DNA of 64,000 bases, taken from positions 78,970,737-79,034,736 of the forward strand of contig NC_090376.1 of NCBI RefSeq assembly GCF_036365525.1, written 5' to 3'. A model generated the notes under the pieces. The model was given only the letters and a program-made list of their open reading frames with translations, was not told where the DNA came from and did no database searches. The DNA is from Heterodontus francisci. Taxonomy: Eukaryota. The first letter of the stretch is position 1. Each line of letters starts with the position of its first letter. A program made the translations under genes and the position numbers. Shown piece after piece: positions 1 to 64,000 of this stretch.

Positions 1-3000
1 TGTGCTTGTTGCTTCTGGTGTTGTAGGAGTCATGCTCGCTGTTGCTAATGTTGTGTCACTTGCGAGTGACGTCGTTACTGTTGTCTCGCTGGATAGTGAT
101 GTTTCTGATGTTTACGGTTTTTCCAGCTCAGCTGTAGGTCGAATATGGATTTTGTTCTTCCGCATTTGGTTACCGGTTTCAGTCTCAACCTTGGAGTCTC
201 AGCTTCACCAACAACTTTTGCTCGGCTCCAGGTTTTCATGATTGGATCCTGTACATATACAGCTTGTCCTTTCAATAGCTCAGGTAGAGATTTAGCATGG
301 GTGTTGAAGTGTTACTCTCTTCTTACCTGTGCATCAGTGAGTTGTTGTCTCATTGCCTCCTGGTTACTTGAAGGATATATTTTGCTTGGCAGAGCAGTCT
401 TTTTTTTCCCATTCAACAGCTCTGCAGGTCAGCCTTGAGAGGTGTGGATCGGAGTGACAATAAGGCCAGATTTGGGTCTTCCTTCGTCCCTTGGCATTTC
501 ACAAGCGTTCTTTTGACCGTCTGGACGTGTCTTTCTATAAATTCATGTCTCCGTGGGTAGTGTGGTGATGAGGTGATGGTGTTGAATCCATACTGGTCAG
601 TGAATTCCTTAAATTCTCTGGGTGAATGTGAATTCAATGTGAATTGGGTGCCATTGTCACATATTAATCTTTCAGAAATTCCTTGCTCAGCAAAGAGAGC
701 TCGTACTGTTGAGATGAATGTTGTGGCTCTTTAGTCTTTCACCTTCAGATAAAAGGGAACTTTGAGTAGTAATCTGCAACTATGGAGATACCATTATTGA
801 TTGTGTGTGAATCAATCGGCTCCTACAGTATGCTGTGGTCTGGGTGATACTTCAAGTAGCTTTCATCCCTTTTTGTTGTTCATTTCTGTACTTCTGGCAT
901 ACATTGCATGTAGACACCATATTCTTGATGTCTTTGTACATGCGTATTTAGTACACGGCTGATCTGGCTCTAAGCTTACACTTCTCCAATCCCATGTGAC
1001 CTTCATGTATCTTTTGGATATGATAATTCTGGATCCGGCTAGCAGAATGCCATCTTCTAATGAGATGTCATCTCTGATAGACCAGTACTGCTGTATTGCC
1101 AGCTGTGTGCTGTATCCCATCATGCCATCCCTGGATCACTTGCTGAGACAGCATCTGTAACTCCTCATCTTAGTTGGTCTCATCTCTGACTAAGTTTCAG
1201 TGGTGTTACATTCACTAGGTGATGAATCTTTATAACTAGATCTTCTATCTCGTGTTTCTCCTGTGGTGACAGCCGAGATAGGTTATCTGCCAGCTCCATT
1301 TCTCTTCCTGGTTTGGATTTCAGAGTGCAATCGTAACTCTTAAGCCTCAAGGAGTAATCTCTGCAGTCTTGCTGGTGCTTTACATTAATTTTTCTTGTAG
1401 ATTTTCTCTAGTGGATGATGATCACGCTCCACTATGACCTTTCTCCCATAGAGATGTGTGGAACTTCTCACATCCATACACAACTGCCAAAAGCTCTCTC
1501 TGTTGGCATTTCTTGTCTCAGCTGATGTCAAAGCTTTGGATGCTTCCCTCTTGTACCAGGGTTGCTCCCAGTCCTTTTGTGGAAGCATCTATTTGCAGAG
1601 TGACAGGTTTCTTTCTGCTGTACAATGACAGACTTGTCTCCTTGCATATTTCCACTTTTGAGTTTACTGAAACTCCTCTCATGTGACTGTGACCACTAGC
1701 ACACAACATCTTCTCTCATCAGCTCTTGGAGGTTTGCTGTGTGCTCTGACACGTGAGGTATGAAAGAGCTCATATACTGGATCAAGCCAAGGAAACTTCT
1801 CAACTCTTATCTCTTGGGGCTTCCATCCCAGAGATGGCTGAGATTCTTTGAGAACTCGGCTTGACTCCGTCAGGTGCGTACACCATTCCGAAGAACTGGC
1901 ATTCTGTCACTTTCACAATGCATTTGTCTGCGTTTAGCTTAATCCCAGCTTTCCTGGTTCTTTCCGTGGCTTCACATAGATGGTTGTCATGATCTTTTCC
2001 ATCTACACCATATATCTGGATATCATCTGCTATGCCAACTGCACCTTTGCATCCCCTGTATGTCTGGTCTACTTTCTGCTGGAACACATCCCAGCTCAAT
2101 TTAAGGCCAAAAGGTAGATGCAGGAATTTATACCATCCAAAGGGAGTGCTGAATGTTGTCAACAGCTAAGATTCTGCATCTAGCTTCATATTCCAGTAGC
2201 CATTTCTGGCATCAAGTTTACTGAAAACTTTTTCCCCTGCCAGTTGGAGTGATCCCTTCCAGTGGTGGAATAGGGTAGTGATCCCTCTTTATTGCTTGGT
2301 TAAGATCTTTGGGATCTCGGCAAATTCTTAGCCGTCCATTTGGCTTCTCTCCCACGATGATAGAACTTACACAATCTGTAGGCTCTGTGACTCTGGCGAT
2401 CACCTTTTCTTCCATTCCTTGGAGCTCCCTTTCAAGCTTTCTTTTTAGTTGTATTGGTACTTTATATGGGGGATGAATCACTGGTTTCATTGCTTGGTCA
2501 ATAGTGAGCTGATACTCAAAATCTTCAAAGCATCCAATTATCGCATCAAAACACTCTGGGTCTATTTGTACCAGATCGTCTTTGCTTCTGATCAGAGAGT
2601 GCTTTTCAATGGGCGTACTGTCTTCAACCATCAGTGCCACTTCCTTCACCTCACGGTTTACTGAGATAATCTGCAGCTCTTTGCAACTGCTCGACCCCAG
2701 GATAGCAGGATCATCTGTGTTTCAATGACATAGAATATACAGTTAACATCCTTTCCTTTGTGTCCCTCTGATTTGGATTGTTCCTAGCTGTCGAATCTCA
2801 GTTCCCCCGTACGACGTTAGCATGATGTTCAATTTCAGAGCACCTTTCCTTGCATAATCATTTTCTACTAAATTTTCAGGACAGATCTTCTGGTATAGTC
2901 TGAGCAGGATGATGTTACTCTCTGCTCCAGTATCAATCTTCACTTTCAGAATTATCATTGTGGGCTTATTTCGCAACCTCTTCCTGATCTGAATGGTTGT

Positions 3001-3983
3001 GTGAATTTCATTTCTCTGGGAACTGTTGCATCCAGACATATTGTACAATTGTATGGTTCCTGTGTCTATTGTGTTCTCAAACCCATCGTCATCTTCCAGG
3101 GTATGGATGTTTTGGTTTCTTTCACTACTCATTCGCCCTGTTACTCTGGCGACTCATCTACCACCTTTTTCCCTTGTTCTGCACATCTTTTCCTAGTGAT
3201 TGGTCATTCCACAAGTTCTGCAGATTGATTCATATGTGGGACATTTCCTTCTGTCTGTGAATTTATTCGGTCGCCCACAGCTCCTGCAAGTTTTCCTCCC
3301 TGGTGTAGATTCTTTTGTTGTTGTTTCACGGCATCAACCCTGCTGCCTTTCTCTTGGTTTAGCTGAAAGCTAGCTGTTTGGATAGAGTGTCTTCATCTGT
3401 CTGCTCGTAGCTTCATGTGCTCTGGCAGTGTCCATAGCCTGCAATATTGTCAGCTTGTCCTTTCTGTACTTCAGGATGTGCAGAACCCCAAATTAGCTGA
3501 TCCATCAGCCTTTCACCTGTGTCTTTAAACTTACATTTTCCGGCTGCTTTTTTCAATCTTATTACACAATTGTCAATAGGCTCACCTAATTCCTGTCTGA
3601 AGCTTTGAAATTCATATTGGTATAGCCGATGATTTGATTTTGGCTGGAGAGGAGTGCTGAATCTTTCAAAAATGTTGTCTGGGTTCCTGCTGTCCTCTTC
3701 CTTTATCTCCTGCCCACGGAAGGATATAGCTGACTAGTGCCTTTTAGGAAACTACTGAATGTCAATGTTTAAACTTCTCAAATGTCTCTATGACAGCTTC
3801 CGATAAATAATGGGCTGTAGCTGTGCATTCATTCCGGTCCCAGTTGACATTTCATTTTTTTTTTTCATTTTTGCACGATTCATTCAGTTTTTCTTTCTCT
3901 GTGGTCCTAATTTGGGTCAATTTATTTCCAATCTGATTCAGCATTAAATTCATTCAAATATTTTGGATTTACTCACAGACACA

Positions 3984-16559: not shown

Positions 16560-18358
16560 AAGGGATGATGATAATGCAGAGGTTATAGAAAGGGAGGAAC
16601 TTAGAACAATCATCACTAGGGAAAAAGTACTGAGCAAACTATTGGGGTTGAAGGCAGACAAGTCTCCAGGGCCTGATGGCCTACATCCTAGGGTCTTAAA
16701 GGAAGCGGCAGTGGAGATAGTGGATCTATTGGTTATAATATTCCAAAATTCTCTGGATACGGGAAAGGTTCCAGTGGTTTGGAAAAAAGCTAATGTAATG
16801 CCCTTATTCAAAAAGGGAGGCAGAAAGTAGGAAACTATAGACCAGTTAGTTTAACATCTGTCGTTAGGAAATGGTTAGAATCCATTTTGAAGGAAATAAT
16901 TTAGAAAGTCAAAACGCAATCCATCAGAGTCAGCGTGGTTTTATGAAGGGTAAATTGTGTTGACTAATTTGCTCGAGTTCTTCAAAGCTGTAACAAGCAA
17001 AGTGGATGATGGGGATCCTGTAGATGTAGTTTATCTGGACTTCCAGAAAGCATTTGATAAGGTGCCACATAAAAGGTTAATACACAAGGTAAGCTCACAT
17101 GGGCCAATATAATAAAAGCAAAATACTGCGGATGCTGGAAATCTGAAACAAAAACAAGAAATGCTGGATTCACTCAGCAGGTCTGGCAGCATCTGTGGAA
17201 AGAGAAGCAGAGTTAACGTTTCGGGTCAGTGACCCTTCTTCTAAGCTCACATGGGGTTAGGGGCAATTTATTAGCTTGGATAGAGGATTGGCTAACCAAC
17301 AGAAAAGAGAGAATCGAGATAAGTGGGTCTTTTTCTGGTTGGCAAGATGTAACTAGTGGGGTGCCACAGGGTTCGGTCCTCAGGCCCCAACTATTTACAA
17401 TCTACATAAATGACTTGGATGCAGGGATAGAAGGTACTATAGCCAAATTTGCAGATGACACTAAAACAGGTGGGACAATAAGCTGCATTAAAGAATTAAG
17501 AAATCTAGATAGGGATAGATTAGATAAATGGGCCAAAATGTGGCAGATGGATGTTAACGTAGATAAGTGTGATGTTATCCATTTTGGTCGGCAGAATAGA
17601 AAGGCAAATTATCTAAATGGAGAGAAACTTCAGAGTGCTTCGGTGCAGAGGGATCTGGATGTCCTCGTGCATGAATTGCAGAAAACTAGTTTGCAGGTAC
17701 AGCAGGTAATAAGGAAGGCAAATGAAATTTTGGCATTTATTGCTAAAGGGATAGAGTATTAAAGTAGGGAAGTGTTGTTGTAACTGTACAAGGCATTGGT
17801 GAGACCGCACCTGGAGTATTGCGTACAGTTTTGGTCCCCTTACTTGAGAAAGGATGTAGTTGCATTGGAGGCAGTTCACTAGATTGATTCCAGAGATGGG
17901 GGACTTGTCTTATGAAGAGAGATTGAGCAGTTTAGGTCTTTAATCTCTGGAGTTTAGAAGAATGAGAGGAGATCTAATTGACGTATATATGATGATTAAG
18001 GGGATTGACAAAGTAGACATTGAGAGGATGTTTCCTCTTGTGGGGCAATCTAGAATGAGGGGTCATAGTTTTAGAATAAGAAGTAGCAGATTTAAAACAG
18101 AAATGAGGAGAAATTACTTCTCTCAGAGGGTCGTGAATCTATGGAATTCACTACCCCAGAGTGCGGTGGATGCCAGGGCATTGGGTAAATTTAAGGAGAT
18201 GGACAGATTTTTAATTAGAAATGGGTTGAAGGGTTATGGAGAACAGGCAGGAAAGTGGAGTTAAGGCCAAGATGAGATCAGCCATGATCGTATTGAATGG
18301 CGGAGCAGGCTCGAGGGGCTGAATTGCCTACTCCTGCTCCTAGTTCTTATGTTCTTAT
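16560..18358 (+). mobile_element. CR1 LINE fragment
   Basis: [35 protein letters not shown]; (TTCTTATG)n tail. Hosts a PLE insert at 17104-17241. Confidence 0.92.
17104..17241 (-). mobile_element. 138-bp PLE pLTR insertion truncated inside the hammerhead core
   Basis: 14-bp TSD TAAGCTCACATGGG (17090-17103 / 17242-17255). Minus strand begins GAAGA-A-GGGTC-ACT-GACCC-GAAA-CG-TT-AACT. Confidence 0.85.
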
Positions 18359-22599: not shown

Positions 22600-25070
22600 C
22601 TCTCATCTCCCAATTGGCCATCATTTCCACTTTTGGATATGTAATCATTTATAGATAACACTTCTGAACTATTAAGGAGACTAATTACTGAGGGGGTGCG
22701 TGCGATGGACCAGGAAAGATCATATCCTTCTGAAGTGCATGAACTGTCCAACATCAAAGTGCTCGTAAATGTCCCAAATTTGTTAAAGCTAGCTGTATAG
22801 GAGCTATCCATTCGAGACTGCTGTCCACTGGCCGCTTTTGACATTCTGACTGTGACAGAAATCTGGCTCAAGGCAGGCAGCTCCCTTCAAAGTTAGACGA
22901 AGGTGTTATAGTAAGAGAAAGAAAAAAAAAATCAAGAAATGGCAGATTTTCTAAATACTTATTTTGTATTGATCTTCACAGAAGAGTATAAGGATAAACT
23001 ATCAAATACAAGGAAAACTAAAAATAAATCAAGGAAAGGGACTTACTGGCTTTATTACTGGCTTTAATAGTGATAAAAATAATAATGAAGAAAACAACTA
23101 GACTAAGTTTAGACAAATCTCCAGGACTTGATGGCTTCCATCCCAGGGCATTAAAAGTAAGTGAGGTAACTGTAGATGTTGTAGTCATGATCTTCCAAAA
23201 CTCTCAATTCAGGAATTATCCTCTTGGATTGGAAAATTGTCAATGTCACTCCATTATTCAAGAAAATTAGGAGAGATAAACTAGGAGATTATCGGTCTAT
23301 TAGTCTGGCATTTGTTGTGGGGAAGTTACTAGAATATATTAGGGATAGAGCGCTTGGACAAATATAAACTGATCAGAAAGAGCCATGAGAATTTGTAAAA
23401 GCCAAGTCATATCTAATGAGACTGTTTGAATATTTGAGGAACTAATTAATGTGGTAGATCAGGGAAACATCCTTCTGGACTCACCATTGAGTTCAACAAT
23501 TTCAGACTGTAATCTCTACCCCCATTTTGTTTCCTTTTATCTCTGCAGGTTTTATTTTTAGCTAGTTTTTCTCTAGTTTTTGCTTTCAGATGACAGCTGT
23601 TCATCATTCAAACCTCCGACACACATGTTGTTTCTACAATTGTCTCATTACCAATCCCTTTGTCCTTGCACCACCAACCAACCCTTTTGTCATTTTAATC
23701 CTCCTGTCTTCCACCCTATCACAGACCGTCCCTTTGTTCTTTTTCCTACCCTTTCCTCTTTCATTTGCTTCAAACCTATTTCATTTCTAACTTTTCCCCA
23801 GTTCTGATGAAGTCATCAACCTGAAACATTAACTGTTTCTTTCTCCACAGATGCTGCCAGACCTGCTGAGTATTTCCAGCATCCATAGTATTTTGTTTGT
23901 GTGTGGTAGATAAGGGAGTGTCTATGGATGTTAATTCTATGAACTTTCAGAAGGCATTTGATAAATTCCACATAAAAGACCTAACAAAAATGAGGGTTCA
24001 CGGAATTAGAGGCACTCTATCAACATGGGTAAAGAATTGGTTAGGAGGTAGGAGATACAGAGTAGGGATTATAGTTAAGTACTTCAACTGGAAAGATGTG
24101 AGTTGTGGTTCCACCACCAACCCTCCAAACCTCAGCCTGTCCCATGCCAAGATCTGACCAGGGGCCTCAGCTAATCACTATATTTATACATTGCTTGGTT
24201 AAAAGAATAGAAAGCCCTATATTAAAGTTTGCTGACAACAGGTCAGGTTAGGTGGCACAGTAAATAGTGTAGATGGGAAAGGATAAAGTTGCAAAGGGGT
24301 ATTGGTAGATTAAGTGAGTCGGCAAAACTGTGGCAAATGTAGCTTAATGTGGGGAAGTGTGAAGTCATCTACTTTGAAGCCAAGGAAGATAAACCAGTAT
24401 TTTCGAAATGGCAGGAAGCTGGGAACTATGAAGGAGGAGAGAGATTTTAGATGAGCAAACACAGAAATCACTAAAGGTTAATGAACAGGTATGAAAAAAT
24501 ATAGAAAGGCGAAAGGAACGTTGGCCTTTATCTCAAGGGGGCTGAATACAAGGGGTGGAGGTCATGTTCCAGTTATATAAAGTTCTGGTTAGACAGCATT
24601 TAGAGTACTCCATTCAGATCTGTGTACCATACCTCAGGTAGTTTATATTGAAGGTTGGGAGGAGCACTGCAGTGCAGCTTCACCAGAATGATACTGGGGC
24701 TAAAAGGTTAAATTATGAGGGTAGGTTACATAGACTAGGTTTGTATTCCTTTGTGTATAGACGATAAAGGGATGATGTAATTGAGGTGTTTAAAATGATT
24801 AAAGGATTTGATAGAGAGAAACTATCCACCCTATTTCCTCTGGTGAAGTCTAGCACAAGGGAGCATAGCCTTAAAGTTAGAGCTAGACCAATGCAGGGGT
24901 GCAAAGAGTAGTGGAAATCTGGAACTATCTCCCCCCGAAAGTTGAGAGGTGAAATCAACTGAAAATGTGAAAACTGAGATTGATATTTTTTTGTTAGGCA
25001 GGGGTATTAAGGATGATGGACTCAAAGCAGATAGATGGAGTTAAGATATAAATCAGTCATGACCTAATTG
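22600..25070 (+). mobile_element. Old CR1 fragment with PLE insert
   Basis: DKSPGLDGFHPRALK, NFQKAFDKFH..., CR1 3' region. Confidence 0.75.
23460..23898 (+). mobile_element. PLE pLTR with hammerhead motif (23800-23834)
   Basis: TSD TGTGGTAGAT flanking; end of ORF (IEFNNFR); AGTT-CTGATGA-AGTCATCAACCT-GAAA-CATT-AACT. Confidence 0.7.
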
Positions 25071-27734: not shown

Positions 27735-29240
27735 GGTCCCGCATGGTAAGCTGGTCGAGAAGGTTCGAACACATGGGATCCAGCGTGAGCTAGCAAATTG
27801 GATACAAAATTGGCTTGGTGATAGGAGGCAGAGGGTGGTAGTGGAGGGTTGTTTTTCAGATTGGAGGCCGGTGACCAGTGGTGTGCCGCAGGGATCGGTG
27901 TTGGACCCTCTGTTGTTTGTTATATATATTTTAGTTTAGTTTAGAGATACAGCACTGAAACAGGCCCTTCGGCCCACCGAGTCTGTGCCGACCATCAACC
28001 ACCCATTTATACTAATCCTACACTAATCCCATATTCCTATCACATCCCCACCTGTCCCTATATATTTCCCTACCACCTACCTATACTAGGGGCAATTTAT
28101 AATGGCCAATTAACCCATCAACCTGCAAGTCTTTGGCATGTGGGAGGAAACCGGAGCACCCGGAGGAAACCCACGCAGACACAGGGAGAACTTGCAAACT
28201 CCGCACAGGCAGTACCCAGAATCGAACCCGGGTCCCTGGAGCTGTGAGGCTGCGGTGCTAACCACTGCGCCACTGTGCCGCCAGAATGACTTGGATGTGA
28301 ATGTAAGGGGTATGATTACTAAATTTGCAGGTGACACCAAAATTGGTGGTATAGTGGACAGTGAAGGAGGTTGTCTAAGATTACAACAGGACATAGATCA
28401 ACTGGGAAAGTGGGCAAGTGAGTGGCAAATGGAATTTAACACAAACAAGTGTGAAGTGATGCATTTTGTGAAGTTAAACCAGGGCAGGACATATACAGTG
28501 AATGACAGGGCCCTGGGGAGTGTTGTTGAGCAGAGACACCTTGGGGTGCAAGTACATAGTCCCCTGAAAGTGGCACCACAGGTAGACAGGGTGGTGAAGA
28601 AGGCATATGGCATGCTTGCCTTCATCGGCCGAGGCATTGAGTACAAGAGTTCGGACGTCATGTTACAGTTGTACATAACGTTGGTTAGGCTGCATTTAGA
28701 GTACTGTGTGCAGTTCTGGTCGCCGTACTACAGGACAGATGTGATTAAACTAGAGAGGATGCAGAAAAGATTCACAAGGATGTTGCCTGGTTTGGAGGGC
28801 TCGAGTCTTAAAGAGAAATTGGATAGGCTAGGTCTGTTTTCCCGGGAGCGAAGGAGGCTGAGAGGGGACATGATAGAGGTATATAAAATTATGAGAGGCA
28901 TAGATAGGGTAGATAGCCAGAGTCTGTTTCCCATGGTAGGGGTGACTAAAATTAGAGGGCATAGACTTAAGGTGAGGGGGAGGAGGTTTAAAGGGGATCA
29001 AAGGGCTAACTTTTTCACACAAAGAATAATGAGTATCTGGAATGAGCTGCCTGAGGAGGTGGTGGAGGTAGGAACAGTAGCTACATTTAAGAGGCATCTG
29101 GACAGGTACTTGAATGAGCAAGGCATAGAGGGATATGGAATTAATGCAGGCAGGTGGGATTAGTATAGATAGGCATTATGGTCGACATGGACGCGGTGGA
29201 CCGAAGGGCCTGTTTCTATGCTGTATGACTCTATGACTCA
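27735..29240 (+). mobile_element. Young CR1 (HER1-like) 3' fragment
   Basis: [28 protein letters not shown], (CTATGACT)n tail. Confidence 0.93.
27929..28282 (-). mobile_element. HE1-like tRNA-derived V-SINE
   Basis: A box TGGCGCAGTGG, B box GGTTCGATTC, V-domain, HER1-type tail, (TAAAC)n. Confidence 0.92.
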
Positions 29241-37525: not shown

Positions 37526-38968
37526 TGTCATGCAGATCCCCACCTGCCAAGAATGAGGCATATTAATTCTGTCATATATGAACATTGATTTTAAACTGTT
37601 GCTGGTGCAAGGAAATGACTTGTTAAACAGATCAGCTGTGGCTGGAAAAACATTTACATACTAACAGACATGCTTGTGGAGACAAAGGACCGTTCCCTGA
37701 CGCATTCAACCCACAACGGACTTTGATCACCAGACATTGAAGGTGAGGAAACTCACATTCCAGGATGACTGCTAAGATGGTCGAATCCACAAACAGACAT
37801 GGTCAGACCAGCTAGTCACATGACTAACCTGCTGGGCAGCCTGAGTTTTTTGAAATACATCAAGAAATGCTGGAAATACTCAGCAGGTCTGGCAGCATCT
37901 GTGGAGAGAGAGAAGCAGAGTTAACATTTCAGATCCGTGACCTTTCATCAGAACTGGCAAAGGTTAAAAATGTAATAGGTTTTAAATAAAAAAAATGTGG
38001 GAGTGGGGCATGAGATAACAAAAGGGAAGGTGTTGATAGGACAGGGTCAGAGAATAACTGACCAGAAGGTCATGGAGCAAAGGCAAACACTATGTTAATG
38101 TTGTGCTGGAAGACAAAGCATTAGAGAGGGTGTTAATTGACAGAAAAATGAACAGCCCTGGCCGAAAGCACAAACATGAAACGAAACAGCGAGCAGGCAC
38201 ATGGTAAACAAAGAAATGAATGATGGAACAAACTAAAATAAAATAAGAAAAAAGAAAAAAAAACTGAAAATTAAAAACGGTGGGTGGGGGGGTGCCTGTC
38301 GTGCTCTGAAATTATTGAACTCGGTGTTCAGTTCGGCAGGCTATAGCATGCCTAATTGGTAAATGATCTGCAGCATTTTGCTTTTATTTGAGTTTTTTTT
38401 TTAAATGTACAGACAGTTTGAGAGAAGAGGGACTGTTTGCTCCTGGTATGGGAAGATCTCCCCTGTCTGCTCCTAACTCTCACAGAACTCCAAATCCACT
38501 GAAGACACATGAACCGCAAAAAATTCTCCTACATCAAACAAGGTTCAAGAATACTGGGCCCCAACGAAAAGCAAGATCTACCTACAATCAAGGACTCTAC
38601 AGCAAGCTTGAAGAACAGTAACCAAAACCATCTTCAGATATTGCCTCAAACTTTTCCACTTTATTTCTTCTCTTTTCTTTCTCTATCTGCATGTGTTTTT
38701 ATCGCGTATGTATGCTAGCATGGACGCGTCGTGTATCCGTAGGCGTTAACCGAATTAGAGTTTTAAGTTTAATAAATTTCAACTTTTCTTCTTTAAACCT
38801 AAGAAAACCTGTTTGGCTGGTTTCTTCGCCTTACAATTGGAAAGCGGTGAACAAAGATTCACCAAGGGGGAGCTAAAACGCAGTGTGTTTAAAATTAAAC
38901 CTTCTTATGGTAAGACCAGGTGAAGGCTGAGAGGGAACCCTAGACCCCTGTCTCACCTGGTCATAACA
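37526..38968 (+). mobile_element. Solo LTR with PLE insert
   Basis: TGTCATG...TCACCTGGTCATAACA; TSD GTAA (37522-37525 / 38969-38972). Confidence 0.85.
37853..38388 (-). mobile_element. PLE pLTR with hammerhead motif (37919-37955)
   Basis: Minus: AGTT-CTGATGA-A-AGGTC-ACG-GATCT-GAAA-TG-TT-AACT; flanked by a TGAGTTTTTT duplication; short inverted tail piece at 38348-38388. Confidence 0.75.
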
Positions 38969-46624: not shown

Positions 46625-47113
46625 ATGGAGATTTGGGAAGGGGAAGGAAAGAGAACGAGGTGGAAGTAGGCTTTACAGGGTTGGGGAACTATGAGGTTGG
46701 AGGCTGTGGACGGAGGATCTCCAGAGGAGATGAGATCAGTGACAGTCCTTAAATAAACAATGGCTTGATGTTCAGTAGTGGGGTTGTGGTCCAGGGAGAA
46801 GTAGGAGGAAGTGTCAGAGTTGGTGTTCGGCCTCTGCTAGGTAGAGGTCGGTAGACCAGACAACGATGTCAGCAGGTTTGATGCTGTTAGGATTGGACCT
46901 GAAAGAACAGTGTGTTGCAAGCTCACAGGGAGATAGGTTAGAGCGAGTGAGAGGCGCAGAGAAATTGAGATGGCCGTTCTGATGAAAGGTCACAGACCTG
47001 AAACGTAAAGTCTTTTTTTTTCTCCACAGTTACTACCTGATCTGCTGAGTATTTCCAGCATTTTTTGTTTTTGTTTCAGATTTCCAGCATCTGCTGTATT
47101 TTGCTTTTGCATT
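46625..47113. mobile_element. Neptune-type PLE fragment (- strand ORF piece 46625-46970) joined to a + strand pLTR beginning at a hammerhead (46975-47010)
   Basis: Minus strand encodes SNPNSIKPAD...VWSTDLYLAEA-like pre-RT motif. Plus strand GTT-CTGATGA-A-AGGTC-ACA-GACCT-GAAA-CG-TA-AAG, then the pLTR tail. Confidence 0.75.
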
Positions 47114-56777: not shown

Positions 56778-57090
56778 GGGTGGCACAGTGGCGCAGTGGT
56801 TAGCACCACAGCCTCACAGCTCCAGGGACCCGGGTTTGATTCTGGGTACTGCCTATGCGGAGTTTGCAAGTTCTCCCTGTGACCGCGTGGGTTTTCGCTG
56901 GGTGCTCCGGTTTCCTCCCACAGCCAAAGACTTGCAGGTAATCGGTAAATTGGCCGTGGTAAATTGCCCCTAGTGTAGGTAGGTGGTAGGGAATATGAGA
57001 TTACTGTAGGGTTAGTATAAATGGGTGGTTGTTGGTTGGCACAGACTCGAAGGGCCTGTTTCAGTGCTGTATCTCTAAATAAAAAAAAAT
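56778..57090 (+). mobile_element. HE1-like V-SINE
   Basis: A/B boxes, V-domain, HER1-type tail, A-rich end. Confidence 0.9.
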
Positions 57091-57300
57091 ACATTGGCTC
57101 CTGGTTCACACAATAGCACCTATTCAAAATGGTCATCCTCATGTAATTTTTTTTCAAATTCATTCATGGGATGTGGCCATTGTTGGTTAGTCCAATATTT
57201 ATTGCCCATCCCTAAGTGCCCTTGAGAAGGTGGTGGTGAGCCCCCTTCTTGAACTGCTGTAGTCCATGTTGGGGAGGTATGCCCAAAGTTCTATTAAGAA

Positions 57301-57613
57301 GGGTGGCACAGTGGCGCAGTGGTTAGCACCGCAGCCTCACAGCTCCAGGGACCCGGGTTCGATTCTGTATCTGCCTGTGTGGAGTTTGCAAGTTCTCCCT
57401 GTGACCGCGTGGGTTTTCACCGGGTGCTCTGGTTTCCTCCCACAGCCAAAGACTTGCGGGTGATAGGTAAATTGGCCATTGTAAATTGCCCCTAGTGTAG
57501 GTAGGTGGTAGGGAATATGGGATTACTGCAGGGTTAGTATAAATGGGTGGTTGTTGGTCGGCACAGACTCGGTGGGCCGAAGGGCCTGTTTCAGTGCTGT
57601 ATCTGAAAAAAAA
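57301..57613 (+). mobile_element. HE1-like V-SINE inserted in the LINE
   Basis: Same structure; near-identical to the 27929 and 56778 copies. Confidence 0.9.
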
Positions 57614-58721
57614 AGGAGTTCCAAGATTTTGACCCAGTGACAGTGAAGGAATGGCACTATAGTTCCAAGTCAGGATGGTGGTGTTCCCGAGCAACTGCTG
57701 CCCTTGTCCTTCTAGGTGGTAGAGGTTGTGGGCTTGGAAGGTGCTGTCGAAGGAGCCTTGGTGCATTGCTGCAATGCATCTTGTAGATGGTACATACTGC
57801 TGCCACTGTGAGTCGGTGGTGGAGGGAGTGAATGTTTGTAGATGGGGTGCTAATCAAGTGGGCTGCTTTGTCCTGGATGGTGTCGAGCTTCTTGAGTGTT
57901 GTTGGAGCTGCAACCATCCAGACAAGTATTCCATCACACTCCTGACTTGTGCCTTGTAGATGGTGGACAGGCTTTGGGGAGTTAGGAGGTGAGTTACTCG
58001 CCACAGGATTCCTAACCTCTGGCCTGTTCTTGTAGTCATGGTATTTATATGGCTACTCCAGATCAGTTTCTGGTCAATGGTAAGCCCCCAGAATGTTGAT
58101 AGTGGGGGATTCAGCGAATGTAATGCCATTGAATTTCAAGGGGAGATGGTTAGATTCTCTCTTGTTGAAATAGTCATTGCCTGGCACTTGTGTGGCGTGA
58201 ATGTTACTTGCCACTTATCAGCCCAAGCCTGGATATTGTCCAGGTCTTGCTGCATTTCTACACGGACTGCTTCAATATCTGAGGAGTCGCGAATGGTGCT
58301 GAATGTTGTGCAATCATCAGCGAACATCCCCATTTCTGACCTTATGATTGAAGGAAGGTCATTGATGAAGCAGCTGAAGATGGTGGGCCCAGGACACTAC
58401 CCTGAGGAACTCCTGCAGTGATATCCTGGAGCTCAGATGATTGACCTCCAACAACCACAATCATCTTCCTTTGCACTAGGTATGACTCCAACCAGAGGAG
58501 CATTTTCCCCCTGATTCCCATTGACTTCAGTTTTGCTCGGGCTCTTTGATGTCATACTTGGTCAAATGCTGCCTTGATGTCAAGGGCAGTCACTCTGACC
58601 TCACCTCATGAGTTCAGCTCTTTTGTCCATGTTTGAATCAAGGCTGTAATAGGGTCAGGAGCTGAGTGGCCCTGGCGGAACCCAAACTAAGTGTCACTGA
58701 GCAGGTCATTGCTAAGCAAGT

Positions 58722-58916
58722 ATAAAAGCAAAATACTGCGGATGCTGGAAATCTGAAATAAAAACAAGAAATGCTGGAACCACTCAGCAGGTCTGGCAGC
58801 ATCTGTGGAAAGAGAAGCAGAGTTAACGTTTTGGGTCAGTGACCCGAAACGTTAACTCTGCTTCTCTTTCCACAGATGCTGCCAGACCTGCTGAGTGGTT
58901 CCAGCATTTCTTGTTT
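58722..58916 (-). mobile_element. PLE pLTR insertion forming a 157-bp palindrome
   Basis: 16-bp TSD TCATTGCTAAGCAAGT (58706-58721 / 58917-58932); arms 58761-58838 / 58840-58917 with one mismatch. Confidence 0.9.
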
Positions 58917-61539
58917 TCATTGCTAAGCAAGTGCTGCCCGATAGAACTATCGACAACACGTTCCATCGCTTTACTGGTGATCGAGAGTAGACTGATGGGG
59001 CGGTAATTGGCTGGCTAGGATTTGTCCTGCTTTTTGTGTACAGGACATAGCTGGGCAATTTTTCACATTGCCGGGTAGATGCCAGTGTTGTAGCTGTACT
59101 GGAACAGCTTGACCAGGGCGCAGCAAGTTCTGGCGCACAAGTCTTCAGTACTATTGCTGGAATGTTGTCTGGGCCCATAGCCATTGCAGTATCCAGTGCC
59201 TTCTGTCGTTTCTTGATATCAAAGTGGAGTGAATCGAATTGGCTGAAGACTGGCATGTGATGCTGTGGACTTCAGTAGGAGGCCAAGATGATTCATCAAC
59301 TAGGCACATTCTGGCTGAAGATTGTTGCAAATGCTTCAGCCTTATCTTATGGTACTGATGTGTTGGGCTTCCCCCATCATTGAGGATGGGAATATTTGTG
59401 GAGCCACCTCCTTTAGTCGGTTGTTTAATTGTCCACCACCACTCACGGCTGGATGTGGCAGGACTGCAGAGCTCAGATCTAATCAGTTGGTTGTGGGATC
59501 GCTTAGCTCTGTCTATCGCATGTTGCTCACGCTGGCATGCAAGTAGTCCTGGTTGTAGCTTCACCAGGTTGACACCCATTTTGAGGTATGCTTGGTGCTG
59601 CTACTGGCATGCCCTCCTGCATTCTTCATTAAACCAGGTTTGATCCCCCAGCTTGATGGTAATGGTAGAGTGGGGGATATGCCAGGCCATGAGGTTAAAG
59701 ATTGTGGTTGAGTACAATTTTGCTGCTGCTGATGGCCCACAGCGCCTCATGGATGCCCAGTTTTCCGTTGCTGGATCTGTTTGAAATTTATCCCATTTAG
59801 CATGGTGGTCGTGCCACACAACACGATGGAGGGTATTCCTCAATGTGAAGACGGGACTTTGTCATCACAAGGACTGTACGGTGGTCACTCCTACCAATAC
59901 TGTCATGGACAGATGCATCTGCAACAGGCAGATCAGTGAGGATGAGGCCAAGTATATTTTTCCCCCACCTGCCGCTGACCCAGTCTAGCAGCTATGTCCC
60001 TTAGGACTTGGCCAGCTCGGTCAATAATGTTGCTGCCAAGCCACTCTTGGTGATGGACATTGAAGTCCCCCACCCAGAGTACATTCTGCGCCCTTGCCAC
60101 CCTCGTGCTTCCTCCAAGTGGTGTTCAACATGGAGGATTACTGATTCATCAGCTGAGCTGGGGCAGTTGGTGTTAATCAGCAGTAAGTTTCCTTGTCCGT
60201 GTTTGGGCTGATGCCATGAGACTTCATGGGGTCCGGAGTTGATGTTGAGGACTCCATGGGCAACTCCCTCCCAACTGTATACCACTGTGCCGCCACCTCT
60301 GGTGAGTCTGTTCTGCCAGTGGGACAGGACATTCCCGGGGATGGTGATGGCGGTGTCTGGGACATTGTAAAGCTGTTGCTTGACTAGCCTGTGGGACAGC
60401 TCTCCCAACTTTGGCACAAACCCCAAATGTCAACAGGGCTGGGTTTGTCGTCGTCATTTCTGGTGCCTAGATCGATGCCGGGTGGTCTGTCTGGTTTCTT
60501 TCCTTATTGACTTTGTAGCAGTTTAATACAACTGAGTGGCTTGCTAGGCCATTTCAGAGTCAATCACATTGCTGTGGGTCTGGAGTCACATGTTGGCCAG
60601 ACCAGGTAAAGACGGCAGATTTCCCTCGCTAAAGGACATTAGTGAACCAGATGGGTTTTTACGACAATCAACAATGGTTTCATGGCCATCATTAGACTAG
60701 CTTTTTAATTCCAGATTTATTAATTGAATTCAAATTCCACCTTCAGCTGCGGTTCAGAGCAATACCCTGGGTCTCTGGGTTATTGTCCAGTGACAATACC
60801 ACTATGCCACCGCCTCCCCAGCATCTCTTGTCCTTGCCCCTCTCCACCTCTGTAACCATCTACAGCATCCTTCGCTCCACCATTGGCAACTCTCTTTAGC
60901 TGTCTAGATCCTACACTCAGGAACTTCCCCTGCTAAACCTCTCCTTTAATATCCTTCACAGAATTCACTTCTTTGACCCAAGGTCACCCCCTCTTAATAT
61001 TTTTCTTTGGCTTGGTGCTAATTTCTTTGATTACAGGTCTGTGAATCAACTTGGGACATTTAGAGGTGTACATAAATACAAATTGTTGTTGATGGGATGT
61101 GCATTTGATTGAAAACAACCACCTCCACAATGTCCTACTCCTCTCGATATTTGAATTTTAACTTAAAATAGAAACTATTGTAATATGTTAAGAGTACAGT
61201 GCACAGAGGTGATGCAATCTGACGAGCAGATTCCCATAAATCAATGTTTTCTTAATTTCAGTTAGACATGTTTTCCCTCTAATTTCTAATATTCAATACA
61301 AGGACTTAAAACAATAGTTACTTGTTTCATAATATTACATTTATCCATTAAATTGTATTTTATACCTTTTAGTGCTTATAGTAAAGATTTTTAGTTGAAG
61401 GTCTCAGCCACAAGCCTGCTTTGGACTTGATAATTCTATCTAGAGCCTAATGAGATTGTGCAATCTGAGTATGTGCAGTGTATTTCATTTCCCAAAATGC
61501 ATCAGTATCAGTCAGCTGTACTGATCAGATAATTTCTTT

Positions 61540-62460
61540 GGCTGCGTTTGCTGACAATGCAAACTAGGTGGCGCAGTACTGACATATGAGCAAATGCAGC
61601 CTCATCCACTGAAACATCACTGTCAGTGATGTCTCAAGCAGCTGCCAGTAATAAAGATGGCACTGCTCAATTTGTCACAAAAAACAAATTAAACTCAAAC
61701 CCCCTCAATGGCCATTATCCATCCCACCCCCAACAGTATCCTGCTCCCTCCTGCCATCGCGCTTCTCTTCGCCGCTTCCTCCCACTCCAAGCTCCGCCAT
61801 GTCCCCCCCTCGGCCACTCGTTCCCGGTCTTGCCGCTTCCTCCCCTCGGTCGCTCACTCCCTGCTTCCCTGCACCCCAGCTGCTCGCTCCAGGCCTCGCT
61901 GCTTTCCCTCTTTCAGCCACTGGCTCCAGCGTCACCCAGTCACCCTGCGGCCGCTCGCTTCCTGCTTTGCACTACGGTGGCTCGTTCCTGCCCCCTGCCG
62001 CTTCTTCAGGCGGTGCAGTGAGGAACGATTGGCCGAGGAGGGGGGAAGCAGCAAGGCCCAGAGTGAGCGGTCGAGGGGGTGAGGCAGCGAGGCCGGAAGC
62101 AAGCGGCTGATGGGGAGGAAAAAACAAATCTTGGAGCGAGCAGCAGGGATGGGGGGGAAGCAGGGAGTGATCGGCCGAGGGGATTGTGCGGCCGAGGGGA
62201 GGATGCAGCAAGGCGGGATGGAGTGGCGAGTTGTCGGGAGTGGGAAACTGAAAGCGGCAATTGAAGCAGGGAGGAAGTGGGATTCTGTTCGGGAGAATGG
62301 ATGCGGCTATCGCAGCGATTGTGGGAAGAGGACGTCATTGCGTGGTGATATCAGTGCATGCATGCACGCATTCGTACTGGTAAGCTGGCAAATGTTTGCA
62401 CACACTGATGACGTCCATGATCACTCTGTGCATGCTCTGCGTTGTCAGGAGTCACTCCAA
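61540..62460. mobile_element. Unclassified non-autonomous element, copy 1
   Basis: Subterminal inverted repeats CTGACAATGCA (61551) / TGCGTTGTCAG (62438); C-rich then G-rich arms; repeated at 63269. Confidence 0.55.
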
Positions 62461-62589: not shown

Positions 62590-63268
62590 GGTATTACAGC
62601 CACGTGGTGTGACGTGGGTGGTTCCTACTGTTCAACTTCCCATCTGACTGCAGCAAATGTATTTCTATTAGAGTCCAGCCACTTGGTGTTTTACTTTTCA
62701 AATACACAGGCAGCGACAGGTTTTCTTGTAGGTTTTTAAAAAAAAGTCAATTGTTCATTGTTTATTGATCAATACACATTATTCCAAAATTGTCACAACC
62801 GCATCCACTCATGCATTCGCTCACATGCACGTGCATACACACGAAGAGACAGATAGAGAAGGGGAAAAAGGGAGGCAGTTTTTCAGCAGGGGGAAAGTTT
62901 ATGATAAACCTGAATTCTCTTGCGCATCAAGCTTTCGATGAGGCCTGAGATGATTGTAGATGTCTCTCTTGATTGAAGGCTCCATTGAAGACAGTGATTT
63001 ACTTCTGGCTGTCACTGCTGTATAATGTAAATGTTGGAATTTTAGTGCTTTCTGGCTTGCTGGAATGCCAGCTGTGGCAAGTTGCTTCTCTGCTGAGTGA
63101 ATCTCTCTCTCTCTGGCTGTCTTTTTTTTTAAGGTAAAACAATGTCACCTCTCACCTCCTGGTATTCTCATCTGTTCTCCATGGTGATTGCACAATGGCC
63201 CAGGACGTGGCTACTTCACACCTCCTTTGTTTCAGAAGAAGACATTCCATTCTGCAATGTTTTTATGC
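62590..63268 (-). mobile_element. LTR-like fragment
   Basis: Composition and motifs (gagacagatagagaagggg, tttattg) resemble the reverse complement of the solo LTRs; interrupted by element copy 2. Confidence 0.35.
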
Positions 63269-64000
63269 TGGCTGCCTTTGCTGACAATGCAACCACTAGG
63301 TGGCGCAGTACTGGCATATGCGCAAATGCAGCCTCATCAACTGAAACATCACTGCCTGTGATGTCTCAGGCGGCTGCCAGTAATAAAGATGGCGCTGCTC
63401 AATTTGACACAATAAAGGCTGCGATCACCATCTCCACCTCCCCCCCCAACTGTATCTTGCTACTTCCCGCCATCTCCGGTTCTCTTTGTCGCTCCCTCCC
63501 ATGCACATCTGCTCACTCCCCACCTCCCCTACCCTCGGCTGCTCCCCCCCACAACTTCGGCCGCTCACTCACCACTTCCCTCCTCGGCCGCCCGCTCCCC
63601 TCCTCGCTGCCCGGAGAAGCGGTGGGGGGGGGGGGGGGGGGAAGACAGGGAACGGGAGACGAGTGGCCGAAGCAGGAAGGCAGGGAGCGAGCAGCCAAAA
63701 GCCGGTGGTGGGGGGGGGGGGGGGTGAAAGCGGCAAAGTGGGGAGCCAGTGGCCAGGGGATGGGTGGCAGCAGCAAGGTGGGGAGTGAGTGGCCGAGTTA
63801 GGTGGAAGCAGCGATGCAGGATGGAGTGGCGAGTAGTCGGGAGCGGGAAATTGAAAGCGGCGATTTAGGCAGGGATGGTCGGAGGGAGCGGGATACCGTG
63901 AGGGGGATTGGAGGTGGTGACCGTAGCTATTGAGGGATGAGGACGTCATTGCACGGTGAAGTCAGCACGCGCATGTGCACATTCATATTGGCAAGATGGC
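63269..64000. mobile_element. Unclassified non-autonomous element, copy 2 (runs off window)
   Basis: First ~140 bp highly similar to 61540-61680; same downstream GAGGACGTCATTGC motif. Confidence 0.55.

Follow-up and report, generated by a model that had tools for sequence, protein, structure and literature searches.

The window analysed here (64,000 nt of Heterodontus francisci, NCBI RefSeq assembly GCF_036365525.1, contig NC_090376.1, positions 78,970,737 to 79,034,736 of the forward strand) contains a retrotransposon, located on the minus strand close to the end of the stretch (Table 1), which is with near certainty a dead, decayed copy of the elasmobranch Zenon long interspersed element (LINE) of the CR1 group. 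Full-length copies of this family begin with a tRNA-like head, and this head is the real, fixed 5′ end of the family. RNA polymerase III (Pol III) likely transcribes the autonomous LINE from the head, and translation likely proceeds in a non-canonical way. A further-reaching proposal is made only tentatively, with confidence a little short of even: that the genomes of sharks and rays harbour a retrotransposon, autonomous and protein-coding, that would be transcribed by Pol III, whose 2.9-kb coding strand would have been purged of terminators and whose uncapped RNA would be translated without an in-frame AUG. Such an element would be a natural Pol III messenger and an intermediate between LINEs and short interspersed elements (SINEs), still shedding SINEs. 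Zenon is a known family, and the trait described here is apparently undescribed.

The majority sequence of the Zenon family comprises 3,298 nt and contains one frame encoding an apurinic endonuclease (APE) and a reverse transcriptase (RT), no ORF1 (the first of the two open reading frames (ORFs) of many LINEs), and a poly-A tail; positions in it are given below as family positions. The location of the 5′ end was examined in the first 100 exact matches of an APE probe, taken consecutively and unselected for the head. Fifty-three of these loci begin at most 30 nt from the head start (42 within 4 nt), 26 break inside the head or the 5′ untranslated region (UTR), and 21 further down. When the upstream flanks of 40 of the loci were compared all against all, the truncated copies had nothing in common there but fragments of other repeats, and neither a normal 5′ UTR with ORF1 nor any other shared UTR or ORF1 was found upstream of them among these 40 loci. 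An exact degenerate probe spanning the passage from the head to the ORF gave 6,401 matches in the 6.0-Gb genome, and the reversed control gave 0; the junction is therefore not unique to the window. Both the head and the APE are present in 30/30 fetched loci, which were chosen for having both, and 15 of the 20 loci that were extended run from head to tail. The counts of exact probe matches climb toward the 3′ end, from 10,140 (family 466) through 16,143 (1600) to 44,936 (2776), which fits the expectation for 5′ truncation.

The first-pass annotation of the window, made from the sequence alone, had described a tRNA/SINE-like head with an A box on the minus strand and had seen no B box. Both observations hold: the head sequence quoted there begins at 60819, the A box lies at 60809-60799, and the B box was lost in this copy through a deletion of 19 nt (family 69-87). 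It is because of this deletion, spanning the B box, that no tRNA is called in the window. In 78 other heads reaching the 5′ end, the B box is exact in 40, substituted in 30 and gapped in 8, and the strict A-box pattern is matched by 42. In 3/30 related loci ARAGORN reads the head as a tRNA-Thr(AGT) whose extra arm is long, and at a lowered threshold it also calls this tRNA in the majority head. The head aligns better to a Thr gene than to three Lys genes (the only isotypes compared), and neither the window copy nor any of 12 related loci matched a tRNA or ribozyme model in Rfam. The autonomous LINE beginning with a tRNA-like head, suspected by the first-pass annotation, is borne out as the full-length form of the family, and this form has a tRNA-type head with A and B boxes. 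Zenon shares with SINE2 elements a tRNA-derived head containing both boxes and the absence of an internal oligo-T terminator on the sense strand. SINE2 elements are also short and non-coding; this applies only to a 400-nt derivative of Zenon, and not to the 3.3-kb element with its selected frame.

Pol III stops at runs of at least four T residues, a property put to the same use previously (PMC4494074). The sense strand of the family sequence (3,298 nt) contains 0 TTTT and 6 TTT. In the ORF, 4 TTT were observed versus 15.2 expected with protein and codon usage fixed (0/2000 permutations as low), and AAA, CCC and GGG were at expectation. Windows of five nucleotides containing four T occur once in the ORF versus 6.5 expected (p = 0.005). 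Tracts of pyrimidines show no such shortage. In the controls from the same genome, TTTT was found 19 times versus 18.7 expected in CR1 frames and 5 times versus 3.8 in RTE frames. In 101 kb of real Zenon copies, 24 TTTT were counted versus 439 AAAA, and in the window copy TTTT is confined to two later insertions. Among the 80 relatives from metagenomes, 69 had a scorable frame and all 69 carried at least two TTTT. None of the recurrent alleles changing to T (n = 8) creates TTTT. An older subfamily was also sought as an independent test, and the search gave ordinary copies of 90-96%. The strand-specific purging of T runs constitutes new support for Pol III transcription. The two control elements, a young CR1 (L041:500-2362, open stretch of 621 codons) and a young RTE (L042:4146-5591, 482 codons), lie beside or inside Zenon copies.

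The majority sequence, whose construction had been suggested by the first-pass annotation, carries a single long frame of 975 codons (family 309-3233), and in a better-kept copy this frame matches Pfam PF03372, PF14529 and PF00078. Recurrent non-CpG alleles of subfamilies are 25 synonymous to 18 non-synonymous versus 1008 to 3003 for private ones (p = 8e-6); this synonymous excess implies that source elements were selected for their protein, and the Zenon frame was under purifying selection. How its translation begins is less straightforward. The first in-frame Met is codon 285, downstream of the APE domain, and there is no in-frame AUG in the domain itself. The frame opens with an Arg-rich leader resembling the basic N-termini of some relatives. 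Directly before it, and in frame with it, lies a two-codon unit (AUG, one codon, UAG) that is exact in 43/63 copies. An out-of-frame AUG at family 355 occurs in 53/63 copies and, as compared by eye, is kept by the Zenon-1 consensuses of each of the five species in print (PMC13343379). This AUG was rejected as an ordinary start: in 32/63 copies the spacing is unchanged and it is out of frame, and the net loss of 14 nt in 6 copies has differing breakpoints and looks like decay. Read-through of the two-codon frame is disfavoured by differences in spacing, as its distance to AUG 355 is 27 nt in the whale shark, 30 nt with an in-frame stop in the dogfish and 31 nt in the three remaining species (a count made by eye on the published consensuses, in which errors are possible; PMC13343379). 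A hotspot of 5′ ends just before AUG 355 was also considered (6 of the first 40 loci at family 344-351) and dropped, with 1/15 truncated copies in 39 new loci (p = 0.43). We infer that initiation may occur near family 355, by a shift or at a near-cognate codon. The 5′ UTR body, near-identical by eye in the published shark and ray consensuses (PMC13343379), has predicted hairpins, and we infer a possible role for it in translation. Starts of the internal-ribosome-entry type and non-AUG starts have been considered possible for LINE frames, with a general mention of “pol II (or pol III)” promoters (PMC3894237).

In the mechanism proposed for Zenon, Pol III would start at the tRNA-derived head with its A and B boxes and would read through 3.3 kb since no terminator intervenes, the transcript ending in the flank beyond the A-tail. 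The uncapped RNA would be translated from a non-standard start near family 355, either a near-cognate codon or the out-of-frame AUG with a shift soon after it. The resulting protein would copy both the RNA that encodes it and the SINE RNAs, via their common 3′ stem-loop. A number of observations weigh against this mechanism. The 24 sequencing runs, 23 of them only guessed as RNA, are all contigs and show neither starts nor strand (four were examined). The AATAAA and A-run in the tail fit Pol II. The absence of TTTT taken by itself gives p = 0.07-0.09 under the strictest null, and the strong signal is the shortage of TTT, which itself is no terminator. Some relatives in which no head was detected are moderately poor in T runs too, with TTT at 31 versus 69.5 expected in L124 and 23 versus 35.5 in L137. 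ARAGORN found tRNA heads in 0/49 relatives, a weak test because the program detects 3/30 true heads, and one that lacks 5′-end DNA of the closest relatives. A tRNA-headed SINE in the same window (the copy at 57304) has TTTT on its own sense strand. The head of one young subfamily of Zenon contains a stretch of four T in five. A tRNA-like sequence was already noted in RTE-1_DAn (PMC5786205). Finally, an uncapped coding RNA requires an unproven translation route.

Other explanations were considered. In one, the head is likewise fixed, but Pol II would produce the autonomous RNA, by using the head or UTR as its promoter or by reading through from host genes; the A and B boxes would then serve the SINEs only, and the shortage of T runs would stem from something else, for example RNA stability or a bias inherited from ancestors. 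The AATAAA and A-tail, the description of LINEs as Pol II-transcribed (PMC10886601), the easier translation of a capped RNA and the moderate T-run depletion of a few relatives all speak for this explanation. It is nevertheless considered unlikely. The depletion concerns T specifically, on the sense strand and over the whole ORF, and not pyrimidine or AT tracts; CR1 and RTE of the same genome are undepleted; the APE frame offers no AUG to cap-dependent scanning; and the heads attached to the LINE keep the B box. A division of labour between two polymerases can also be imagined, in which Pol III RNA would be reverse-transcribed, while a small number of source loci would supply the protein through capped transcripts made by Pol II, the Pol III RNA being mobilised in trans like a giant SINE. 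Both the purging of T runs and the absence of a usable start codon would be accounted for in this way, and the purifying selection on the ORF holds whichever RNA is translated. However, ORF selection in the copied subfamilies is simplest if each RNA encodes its own protein, and truncated copies show no alternative coding 5′ end upstream, which makes the division of labour quite improbable. The window copy itself, broken and without a B box, could suggest a chance SINE beside a truncated LINE at this locus only. This is refuted by the 6,401 exact junction matches, the 15/20 full-length copies and the same structure in five published species, and deserves practically no credence. Transcription of the autonomous LINE by Pol III remains the preferred reading.

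The supposition that internal-deletion derivatives of the LINE constitute a SINE, made of the head and the LINE end, was confirmed. The SINE consists of family 1-322 and the last 76 nt (~400 nt in total), and the junction at which its head meets its tail (family 322 to 3223) is matched exactly 2,535 times. Of 30 junction loci, 29 align as a part of the head with at most the last 76 nt, and the remaining one aligned by its tail alone. A count of heads that continue into the ORF, as had been suggested, gave 18 among 30 unselected heads, the other 12 being deletion forms. These 12 have several breakpoints, and forms that retain LINE sequence past 322 must derive from the LINE. A consistent target-site duplication was not found across the SINE loci, with 1 candidate among 30. 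In the tree of SINE and LINE heads (three gapped rows left out, three mislabelled rows relabelled), young SINE heads group with young LINE heads: one starred branch contains 43 LINE heads together with 13 young SINE heads, and the 10 older SINE heads fall outside it. That the SINE arose several times was considered and not adopted, as the approximately unbiased (AU) test does not reject one SINE clade (p = 0.158). With this value, the head may first have been captured by the LINE from a SINE, or the SINE may always have come from the LINE.

tRNA-like heads are known in Ingi/Vingi LINEs, as the first-pass annotation had stated. Other SINEs of sharks, with tails from L2, have been described (PMC5499810). 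Lepidopteran Zenon and Persaeus are, like the family studied here, single-ORF LINEs of the CR1 group, in which internal deletions yield a short mobile partner with both the 5′ and 3′ ends (PMC6740152). Persaeus is described there as having no tRNA homology or Pol III promoter, whereas the shark LINE and its derivative both carry a promoter-type head. Bov-tA, SINE2-1_ACar and others have a tRNA head, a body and a LINE tail, as does the short derivative in sharks (PMC5786205); in these Bov-tA-type SINEs, however, the head stands on a non-coding deletion product of RTE or Vingi, while in sharks it stands on a full coding LINE of the CR1/Zenon clade. The nearest precedent found is RTE-1_DAn with its relatives, autonomous LINEs with a tRNA-like sequence (PMC5786205). 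They belong to the RTE clade and, in the passage concerned, are brought up solely because they cause spurious hits; position, polymerase and T runs are not analysed in it. The term SIDE (Persaeus-type) refers to a deletion product without a Pol III promoter; the Zenon derivative keeps its tRNA head.

Pol III is not known to make messenger RNA or to serve anything but short non-coding elements. As a working rule, LINEs are transcribed by Pol II and SINEs by Pol III (PMC10886601; PMC5786205). If the proposed transcription is true, then a LINE whose copies number in the tens of thousands (one 3′ probe has 44,936 exact matches), common to sharks and rays, breaks this rule. The birth of a SINE would take one step, a deletion within a LINE already bearing the promoter. 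Two questions would also become testable: whether Pol III can make a functional coding RNA of 3.3 kb, and how such RNA is translated without a cap or an in-frame AUG.

Zenon elements of sharks and rays have been published, every one without ORF1 and with a poly-A tail, and according to that paper none was deposited in any repeat repository (PMC13343379). The consensus of the window's family is in its supplement, and the head motif is present in the CarCar_Zenon-1 row. The published consensuses were compared by eye over the first 400 nt of each supplement entry. In this region, those of elasmobranchs (CarCar, RhiTyp, ScyCan, SquAca and HypSab) are near-identical to the window family, and the same tRNA-like head opens 7/7 of them, from five species; two hagfish and one coelacanth consensuses start without it. 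The five Zenon-1 rows are 3,244-3,314 nt long versus 3,298 nt here, both have no ORF1 and a poly-A tail, and no structural difference was seen between the published elements and the window family. The earlier remark that there is no space for ORF1 is correct, as 308 nt precede the only long frame, but it is not new, since the absence of ORF1 is already published for all Zenon (PMC13343379). None of the terms tRNA, polymerase III, Pol III, promoter or start codon occurs in the main text of this paper (0 matches), which accordingly describes neither the head nor the purging of T runs, nor the lack of a start codon, nor the SINE derived from the LINE. Neither a tRNA head on Zenon nor an autonomous LINE transcribed by Pol III was found described in the literature searched, with Repbase, Dfam and most subscription journals outside its scope, and the available parts of PMC7245038, PMC10886601, PMC11481361, PMC3391268 and bioRxiv 10.1101/443036 held nothing on this head.

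In an RT tree built with no named Zenon references, the element groups with a clade holding two crab proteins (support 88/89, unstarred); a grouping of elasmobranch Zenon with crab proteins is likewise reported in PMC13343379. The RT of Zenon is 37% identical to that of the CR1 of the same genome (L041) and is placed apart from it. A canonical vertebrate CR1 has an esterase ORF1 upstream of ORF2, or clusters closely with such elements, and the 308 nt before the only long frame of Zenon do not fit this description. Membership in RTE is not indicated either, as the RTE frame of the genome aligns over 86/305 RT residues and has a very long branch. Among database proteins, the closest share ~45% identity with it; many have a length of 900-1000 aa and contain APE and RT. 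The Zenon family is also present in contig-type runs of four other organisms. A CR1-like relative from a metagenome (L124:1531-4855), in which no tRNA head was found, has half of the expected TTT and, before its endonuclease, what we take to be a 2A-like motif.

The window copy aligns with family positions 2-3298 in three pieces, with 91.7%, 94.3% and 83.8% identity outside gaps. Its overall structure had been described correctly: the body of the head passes into the APE-coding sequence at ~60440-60430, followed by the RT and a 3′ tail, the A-tail ending at ~57147. Pfam RVT_1 matches 58136-58396 (E 3e-9), and the APE fragment of the window alone gave no Pfam match. No target-site duplication was seen by eye. 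What the first-pass annotation missed were the two later insertions, a palindromic repeat and a SINE. The arms of the former are 82 nt long and 98% complementary, and the duplicated Zenon sequence corresponds to an overlap at family 2002-2015. The inserted SINE is presumably HE1-like. All features are collected in Table 1.

Table 1. Features of the Zenon copy and of its insertions, in positions of the window.
Feature	Positions	Strand	Basis
Decayed full-length Zenon LINE with two later insertions (family ~3,298 nt)	57147..60820	-	Alignment to family majority sequence
tRNA-derived head, Thr-AGT-like with long extra hairpin, B box deleted	60750..60820	-	ARAGORN on related loci and majority head
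Pol III A box	60799..60809	-	Sequence; 42/78 family heads fit strict pattern
5′ UTR body common to derived SINE (family 100-322), predicted hairpins	60530..60741	-	SINE junction at family 322; RNAfold
Upstream frame of two codons (AUG, one codon, UAG) immediately preceding long ORF, same frame	60544..60552	-	Exact in 43/63 copies
Site of the AUG conserved at family 355, not in the APE frame; mutated in window copy	60498..60500	-	AUG in 53/63 copies
Single APE and RT frame, 975 codons in family, broken here by stops and frameshifts	57212..60543	-	Pfam PF03372, PF14529, PF00078 on better-kept copy
APE endonuclease domain (approximate)	59880..60430	-	PF03372 residues 47-247 of L039 frame, mapped to window
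Reverse transcriptase domain (approximate), split by palindromic insertion	58125..59034	-	RVT_1 on window and L039
3′ tail retained by SINE: predicted stem-loop, AATAAA, A-run (family 3223-3298)	57147..57225	-	Alignment; fold
Palindromic repeat inserted later, foreign to family, with 14 nt of Zenon sequence duplicated	58722..58918	.	Inverted repeat; absent from other copies
Later insertion, unrelated tRNA-headed SINE, opposite strand	57304..57614 (approximate)	+	93% to 56849-57056; absent from other copies

Relatives of the palindromic repeat occur elsewhere in the window, at 17112-17235, 46988-47108, 37851-37942 and 23819-23882. The half at 17112-17235 is 97% identical, so the family looks young, and the long duplication suggests retrotransposition despite the hairpin form. 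The tRNA-headed SINE is represented by three copies (57304-57614, 56780-57090 and 27935-28282). Zenon copies of the genome (L001-L030, L031-L050) carry many deletions of 7-35 nt, several of them between short direct repeats and often affecting family 410-450; this pattern suggests frequent microhomology-driven deletion in this genome. Copies with identical alignment limits were found in triplicate (L096, L097 and L098; L299, L300 and L304) and are probably segmental or tandem duplications. Upstream of the element, there are two GC-rich low-complexity stretches, 61600-62350 and 63130-63960, each adjoining a similar unique segment.

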